The notes under the pieces: generated by a model
The model's input: the letters and a program-made list of their open reading frames with translations, nothing else
What the model was told of the DNA's origin: nothing
Databases searched by the model: none
Position numbers and translations under genes: made by a program
Virus record (IMG/VR): IMGVR_UViG_2880412407_000002
From: a virus
Taxonomy: Duplodnaviria > Heunggongvirae > Uroviricota > Caudoviricetes
Reading direction: 5' to 3' (one strand)
Length of the DNA: 64,000 nucleotides
Shown: in pieces, positions 14,997-15,058 of the stretch
Layout of the letters: each line of letters begins with the position of its first letter
Numbering within the stretch: the first letter of the stretch is position 1

Positions 14997-15058
14997 GGCG
15001 GAAGCGCAGAGATTCGAACTCTGGAACCCTTTCGGGTCGCCGGTTTTCAAGACCGAAG
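14997..15058 (-). tRNA. tRNA-Ser(UGA) 3' fragment (anticodon arm to CCA), probable attachment-site core
   Basis: Reverse complement cggtcttgaaaaccggcgacccgaaagggttccagagttcgaatctctgcgcttccgcca matches serT 3' end from recall; 5' half absent. Confidence 0.7.

Follow-up and report, generated by a model that had tools for sequence, protein, structure and literature searches.

Why should a 60-nt piece of a tRNA gene lie by itself between two prophages? The window, by which we mean the whole stretch of 64,000 nucleotides that was analysed, carries such a piece at the boundary between the end of one lambdoid prophage (prophage A) and the start of another (prophage B). Positions 1-25000 of the window match the genomes GTVSS-020, 2015C-3107 and 2014C-3599 at 100.0%, and on these matches the DNA is assigned to the chromosome of Shiga-toxin-producing E. 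coli (STEC) O121:H19. The prophage annotation was mapped from H1 (strain 2014C-4423), which belongs to the same lineage, and the key junctions were then confirmed in 2014C-3599. Coordinates of the features are collected in Table 1.

Identity of the fragment

The fragment matches positions 29-88 of the 88-nt E. coli serT gene, which encodes tRNA-Ser(UGA). The reverse complement of its plus-strand sequence, TGGCGGAAGCGCAGAGATTCGAACTCTGGAACCCTTTCGGGTCGCCGGTTTTCAAGACCG, equals serT 29-88 with zero mismatches, so that the 5' strand of the anticodon stem and everything from there through CCA is retained. The bases that lie 5' of tRNA position 29 in the window are unrelated to serT. In dinucleotide-preserving shuffles of the window, the expected number of matches to the 3' part of serT was 0, even when up to three mismatches were allowed. 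The serT reference itself was checked against K-12 serT (b0971) and against annotated tRNA-Ser genes, with a match of at least 99% in 5390 complete E. coli genomes; it is 100% identical to an annotated tRNA-Ser in most of 5425 complete genomes. The exact match confirms what the sequence-only reading had recognised, namely the 3' part of a tRNA-Ser(UGA) gene from the anticodon arm to CCA, and it removes the possibility that the fragment corresponds to no tRNA-Ser gene at all. That reading had placed the fragment at 14997-15058: the location was right, and the ends were off by one to three bases.

None of the tools for finding tRNAs recognises the fragment. ARAGORN made no call on it, the only tRNAs in the window being a cluster of three phage tRNAs in prophage B. 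No tRNA match was found in Rfam at the gathering threshold or at E <= 10, and a permissive Rfam search of window positions 14900-15160 returned chance-level matches only, with no tRNA among them. This silence is explained by the missing 5' half of the tRNA. A functional tRNA gene can be ruled out, because there is no complete cloverleaf with acceptor stem and D arm. The fragment is a truncated serT gene, not a tRNA.

The junction around the fragment

The fragment sits, as had been claimed from the sequence alone, between the end of prophage A and the int gene of prophage B. On its left are the type III effector gene espK and the remnant of a tail-fibre-assembly gene, the last phage-coding sequence ahead of the att site. 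On its right is the integrase gene, followed by a gene for a DUF4224 protein, which stands in the excisionase position and may serve as an Xis-like directionality factor, and then by an exonuclease gene.

Two arms enclose the 60-mer. The P arm, about 95 nt long, also occurs at attR, where it directly follows the 3' end of the intact serT of O121 and of strain E2865. It contains two copies of the 9-mer TATACCAAG, at 14930 and 14941, with an overlapping inverted copy, and a terminator-like hairpin, AAAGGGGCTACCATTTGGTAACCCCTT, at about 14962-14989. The 64-kb window has three copies of TATACCAAG in all, where 0.18 would be expected. Two are those of the P arm and the third stands in the P' arm, which fits a role of these repeats as candidate arm-type integrase-binding sites. 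The hairpin resembles the native serT terminator, so that a phage restoring serT would supply a terminator along with the 3' end of the tRNA. In K-12 its counterpart is the serT terminator itself, at about 2095-2122 of record L004, and megablast aligns the K-12 flank downstream of serT, through this hairpin, to the P arm at about 91%.

Table 1. Features of the window and of the related junctions (positions refer to the window unless another record is named; a point marks features without strand)
Feature	Position	Strand	Remarks
Prophage A tail module, left repeat copy	1-12602	+	H1 annotation; alignment to 49585-61978
Prophage A tail genes	V (cut by window start), G, T, tape measure 1532-4176, M, L, K, I, J 6781-10257	+	H1 annotation
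Prophage A lom and tail fibre	lom 10324-10922; tail fibre 10987-12298 and onward	+	H1 annotation
espK, type III effector cargo at right end of prophage A	13024-14385	-	453-aa ORF; EspK in the annotation of the matching genome
Tail-fibre-assembly gene remnant	14765-14914	+	C-terminal 49 aa; Pfam Caudo_TAP, E = 5e-21, profile 89-131 of 131
P arm of att site	14903-14995	.	conserved at the window junction, attR sites and phage Evi attP
Orphan serT 3' fragment (tRNA 29-88), identity block O of att site	14996-15055	-	exact 60/60
P' arm, integrase-proximal	15056-15196	.	one TATACCAAG repeat, 15159-15167
Prophage B tyrosine integrase, 339 aa	15197-16216	-	Pfam Phage_integrase, 33.5 bits (cut-off 27.1)
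DUF4224 protein, excisionase position	16194-16436	-	Pfam DUF4224, E = 9e-9
DicF sRNA, prophage B	19631-19682	-
sok antitoxin RNA beside hokD, prophage B	28439-28613	+
Three-tRNA cluster, prophage B	33338-33587	+	CAT (Met by ARAGORN, Ile in RefSeq), Arg-TCG, Arg-TCT
STnc100, prophage B	34357-34529	+
Prophage B terminase-to-tail-assembly block	40863-56017	+	common to the post-torS prophage
Prophage B tail module, right repeat copy	49585-61978	+	H1 annotation; alignment to 1-12602
Prophage B tail genes	V 49549-50301, G, T, tape measure 51167-53745, J 56148-59628	+	H1 annotation
Prophage B lom and tail fibre	lom 59696-60295; tail fibre 60360-61673	+	H1 annotation
11-bp core CTTTAGGTGAA	L007 2321 (H1, torS side); L002 47042 (H1, torT side); L004 26690 (K-12)

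Probable tandem integration at serT

A second, identical 60-mer lies between yccA and the integrase gene of prophage A, both in H1 and in 2014C-3599. Its left flank is K-12 chromosomal sequence downstream of serT and its right flank is a P' arm, and because of the chromosomal flank we read this copy as attL (B-O-P'). The copy in the window, on the other hand, has phage DNA on both sides, the P arm on the left and the P' arm on the right. The block is thus directly repeated at the boundaries of the prophages, and the outermost copy is the one that borders on the chromosome. The sequences that follow the two copies differ by 2 mismatches in about 500 nt. The integrases of prophages A and B are identical at 338 of 339 positions, and the DUF4224 Xis-like proteins share one protein accession; the two prophages differ in their immunity regions and head genes.

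The same layout exists in a free phage. The attP of phage Evi (LR597642.1) contains, contiguously, a P arm, the identical 60-nt block, a P' arm and int, with 94% identity over 298 nt, and a small ORF in the Xis position followed by exo. The resemblance has its limits: the Evi record is a deposited phage genome of 40 kb, no junction of prophages, the P' arms of Evi and the window are about 92% identical (about 8% diverged), and an EspV remnant stands beside its P arm in place of espK. Together with the second 60-mer at yccA, the two arms and the matching integrases, the Evi layout upholds the earlier proposal that prophages A and B are integrated in tandem at one att site.

We consider it very probable that the 60-mer is the core of a hybrid, attP-like P-O-P' site produced by successive integrations at serT, with prophage B having recombined later. 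The attP of this type of phage would carry a copy of the last 60 nt of serT together with the terminator-like hairpin, and the integration crossover would fall within or at the edge of the 60-nt block. A complete serT would be rebuilt at attR by the phage copy, while the displaced bacterial 3' end of serT would be left as an orphan beside int at attL. A second phage entering the att site of the resident prophage would then leave a P arm, the 60-mer and a P' arm between the two prophages, which is the arrangement seen in the window. The order in which A and B were acquired is something that we infer rather than observe. In its present position the 60-mer would likely act as a recombination site at which Int could excise prophage A (attL x P-O-P'), and it likely also forms the 3' flank of the int gene of prophage B. 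The fragment is a genuine, fully explained att-site scar, and features of this kind are known from published genomes. tRNA-targeting integrases, tandem lysogeny and mosaic lambdoid tails are textbook biology, and since the STEC genomes concerned are already published, the scar adds little by itself. What it does illustrate is that orphan tRNA 3' fragments are reliable markers of prophage boundaries.

The same P-O-P' junction would result if the tandem had arisen by homologous recombination instead of Int, with the site merely carried in. In that case a circular phage would have recombined with a resident serT prophage, for example in the int-xis-exo region, or the tandem would stem from unequal crossing-over between sister chromosomes. 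Homology is plentiful, as int, the Xis-like gene and the P' arm of A and B are almost identical over more than 1.3 kb, and exchange between these two prophages is demonstrably active. Yet the junction keeps a complete and undisturbed attP layout identical to that of free phage Evi, and the different immunity regions and head genes of A and B argue against a duplication. Tandem integration by Int is also the simpler course and the standard reading of tandem prophages at a shared att site in STEC (PMC8112680). Overall, we regard the homologous route as improbable.

Still less probable is a function of the fragment as an RNA element in addition to being a scar, either as a tRNA-half-like RNA or as part of the int 3' UTR and terminator, with a retro-regulatory effect on int like that of lambda sib. 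The fragment does lie on the int strand, 141 nt downstream of the int stop codon, and is followed by the terminator-like hairpin and a T-rich run. Within P-O-P', moreover, the int gene of prophage B keeps the 3' context of the free phage, whereas that of prophage A has a chromosomal one. However, the need to restore serT fully accounts for the conserved 60-mer, Rfam has no family that matches it, and an RNA role would be an addition to the proposed origin and not an alternative to it. Finally, an assembly artefact, in which similar prophages were collapsed or mis-joined and A and B are not truly adjacent, was a concern of the sequence-only reading, and the repeat-rich region and several single-base indels beside homopolymers (suggestive of an imperfect long-read assembly) lend it some substance, but it is practically dismissed by the 1.1-kb junction stretch, which recurs at 99.8-100% in 22 independent complete genomes from different laboratories, including O103:H2 12009, and by the outer junctions and displaced serT, which are reproduced in two independent O121 assemblies.

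To see the tandem at serT in a wider context, we turned to complete E. coli genomes. serT is occupied by a phage of this int/P' type in 746 of 5426 genomes (approximately 14%), O157:H7 and O145 among them, where the best match spans the attL side, that is, chromosomal flank, 60-mer, P' arm and the start of int. The query was 298 nt long and at least 80% coverage was demanded; because attL alone reaches 82% through the P-arm-like hairpin in the chromosomal flank, the figure of 746 measures occupancy of serT and not the number of P-O-P' junctions. Subtraction leaves about 103 surplus places (6274 - 5425 - 746), eight of which are matches to the serT sequence on plasmids. As a rough estimate only, this suggests that around 100 genomes hold an additional tandem copy.

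The right end of prophage B and the displaced serT

An intact tRNA-Ser gene had been expected just beyond the window, and this expectation failed. Prophage B ends with nleG and espJ and then abuts torT; the match to the K-12 chromosome starts 10 bp upstream of the torS start codon. No serT-like sequence was found near this right end, and in H1 there is no intact serT in the 146 kb around the window. The intact gene, followed by hyaA through yccM-torS in K-12 order and orientation, is located about 215 kb downstream in both O121 genomes inspected (H1 and 2014C-3599). It is preceded, on the 3' side of serT, by the P arm and the right end of a third prophage, with a tccP2-like gene and an EspV remnant; the left end of that prophage adjoins potC and carries a different integrase. 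Hence serT has not been rebuilt at an attR directly after the last prophage of the tandem, but stands, flanked by a P arm, beside another prophage. Later recombination explains the absence of an attR serT after prophage B, which thus does not contradict the tandem origin.

On its other side, torS is followed by a lambda-type integrase and the early region of yet another prophage; the integrase (WP_000533662.1) is annotated as a tyrosine recombinase and has an excisionase adjacent. An 11-bp core, CTTTAGGTGAA, is present at the torT-side junction and at the torS-side junction, and once in the torS-torT spacer of K-12. The two junctions can accordingly be read, from their sequences, as the attL and attR of a single integration site that has been split; about 186 kb now separate the two, and their order is reversed. 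The post-torS prophage and prophage B also share a long block running from the terminase to the tail-assembly genes, with identical protein accessions. In comparison with the post-torS prophage of H1 (L007), identity is 99.2% over 40863-50310 and 97.0% over 50308-56017, while the sequence to the left of the block is unrelated. A block of 97-99% identity with an unrelated left side points to a crossover between a serT phage and a torS/torT phage within 40863-56017. Prophage B is accordingly a recombinant of these two phages and not a simple second lysogen.

The simplest account is that three directly oriented lambdoid prophages, at serT, at torS/torT and at potC, recombined within those late regions that are homologous. 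An exchange of this kind in the shared head-tail genes would create a prophage whose left part stems from the distal serT prophage and whose right part stems from the torS-torT prophage. With participation of the third prophage at potC, the blocks from serT to torS (about 25 kb) and from torT to potC (about 116 kb) would exchange their order. We infer that the swap took place either by excision of a circle and its reinsertion, or by a duplication through unequal sister exchange followed by two deletions. Two simpler events were considered and rejected. A plain deletion between prophage B and the torS/torT prophage would lose serT, yet a full-length copy is present in 5425 of the 5426 complete genomes searched, that is, in every genome with any serT match. 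A single inversion is ruled out by the K-12 orientation of yccA, torT and serT.

The ends of prophage B are incompatible, serT-type on the left and torS/torT-type on the right, so that its own integrase should not be able to excise it precisely. By contrast, prophage A is bounded by attL and P-O-P'. This means that the two ends of a prophage, as annotated, may derive from different integration sites; the integrase of such a chimera cannot mobilise it.

Is the distal prophage of the tandem prone to such exchanges? In E2865 the same P-O-P' junction is present, with a tccP2-like phage followed by int, and the distal prophage ends beside ymdF/rutG on the wrbA side (junction at 1269-1271 kb, L013); serT is 305 kb away and adjoins an espK-type right end. 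In O103:H2 12009 the end of the distal prophage is inverted and adjoins yodB/zinT (2282-2286 kb, L014). These endings suggest repeated recombination of the distal prophage with others. It is possible, although we hold the view only tentatively, that the distal member of the serT tandem recombines repeatedly with other prophages and thereby reshuffles the chromosome, the three-prophage swap of O121:H19 being one instance. If this is true, the swap moved serT, the essential and sole tRNA-Ser(UGA) gene, by about 160 kb and left behind a chimeric prophage unable to excise. The chimeric nature of prophage B and the displacement of serT by a block swap are the one non-trivial addition of this study, and a modestly interesting one.

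Comparison with known systems

The arrangement resembles that of lambda dilysogens, in which tandem polylysogeny occurs at one attB: the prophages are in direct orientation, their integrases share one specificity, the outer left site is attL and the middle site is P-O-P'. It differs in that the outer right attR has become detached from prophage B, whose right half now comes from a torS/torT prophage. As a consequence, only prophage A is bounded by two compatible sites.

Another related system is the O157:H7 serT prophage carrying TccP2 or EspK, which we take, in part from the effector table in PMC2323221, to be Sakai Sp4 / EDL933 CP-933N. The literature search gave no match for Sp4 together with serT. 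This prophage occupies the same site, its attL side (flank, 60-mer, P' arm, int start) is 96% identical, and its right end, in the order tccP2, EspV remnant, P arm, serT and hyaA, is the one found beside the displaced serT of O121. O157:H7 genomes have two copies of the block, as expected of a single prophage, whereas the lineage of the window has three, as expected of a tandem pair, and its distal prophage is rearranged.

The site torS-torT is the site of HK022 and is also used by Stx1 phages of O26 and O103 (PMC6814406, PMC2323221, PMC10042803). The core CTTTAGGTGAA is common to that site, the right boundary of prophage B and the post-torS prophage, but here attR lies upstream of attL, because the chromosomal blocks have swapped their order. 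In O103, the right junction of the torS-torT Stx1 phage "was not identified" (Ogura 2007), and a split torS-torT site may explain this.

Prophage-mediated inversions in O121 and O157 STEC are likewise attributed to homologous recombination in shared lambdoid late-gene modules; the event proposed here is no inversion, since two blocks would have changed places by way of three prophages in direct orientation. Nishida et al. (PMC8767318) describe O121 inversions between the ydfJ, ttcA and dusA prophages, four tandem sites in O121 and a torS/torT prophage in all strains. In the text of that report, serT appears among the prophage sites of strain 2A only, and the authors may label the cluster differently; none of the site names occurs in the supplements. 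No description of the block swap was found in the texts of the STEC prophage papers that were searched.

Tail modules and gene conversion

The tail modules of the two prophages had been described as near-identical from V to lom and in direct orientation. The direct repeat is real. Near-identity is not: the successive alignments of A to B show identities of 92.1%, 86.2%, 84.4%, 86.4% and 82.6%, with no alignment between A and B over a portion of the tape-measure gene. Identity of 96-98% is reached only at about 10500-12100, which covers the 3' end of J, lom and the 5' part of the tail-fibre gene, and no perfect tract is longer than 325 nt. As direct repeats, the tail modules are diverged and mosaic.

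The further suggestion that these modules are a substrate for exchange is borne out by a comparison of the window with H1. Only 3 positions differ across 12000-29000, in contrast to several hundred within the tail module of prophage A. At 92 of the 96 substitutions in 3001-4500, the prophage A base of H1 is the prophage B base, which marks a gene-conversion tract between the two tail copies. In the J gene, the differences between window and H1 match neither copy or either copy, which points to another donor prophage. The O121:H19 prophages that carry effectors (espK, nleG, espJ, tccP2-like) are linked both to large rearrangements and to ongoing gene conversion, and this link matters for the typing of prophage integration sites by long PCR or short reads.

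A separate patch was noticed in prophage B. Positions 29001-29500, in the hok / DUF968 area, contain 64 clustered differences from H1 in a region that is otherwise 99.9% identical, and the cluster looks like another recombination patch.

Additional observations on the O121:H19 prophages

To the left of the window, at 2521553-2534095 of H1 (NZ_CP027454.1; L001 11554-24096), a P4-like satellite of about 10 kb splits the large terminase gene of prophage A. It encodes an integrase, an HTH protein, a BRO-N protein, an Icd-like protein, a primase, an SSB and a capsid-protease fusion. In 2014C-3599 the large terminase gene is intact, the satellite is absent and prophage A is about 12 kb shorter than in H1. 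The satellite is a prophage-in-prophage insertion that is polymorphic within O121:H19.

In prophage B of H1, an IS600 (L002 30758-31914) separates V from G; the window has none at this place (about 50310). A second IS600 occupies the same position in the near-identical post-torS prophage (L007 39467-40623). Such a same-site pair suggests copying by gene conversion or by the duplication from which the chimeras arose.

Single-base indels relative to H1 were found at 2691, 10707, 11753, 11779, 52174 and 57985, mostly beside short runs of G or A, and the corresponding span of 2014C-3599 is longer than the window by 7 bases. The indels split the tape-measure genes of both prophages, lom and the tail-fibre gene of prophage A, and J of prophage B. 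The split genes may be long-read assembly errors and not real pseudogenes.

Beside these, prophage B holds several small RNA genes (Table 1), and DicF, sok, STnc100 and the tRNA cluster are typical cargo of EHEC lambdoid prophages.
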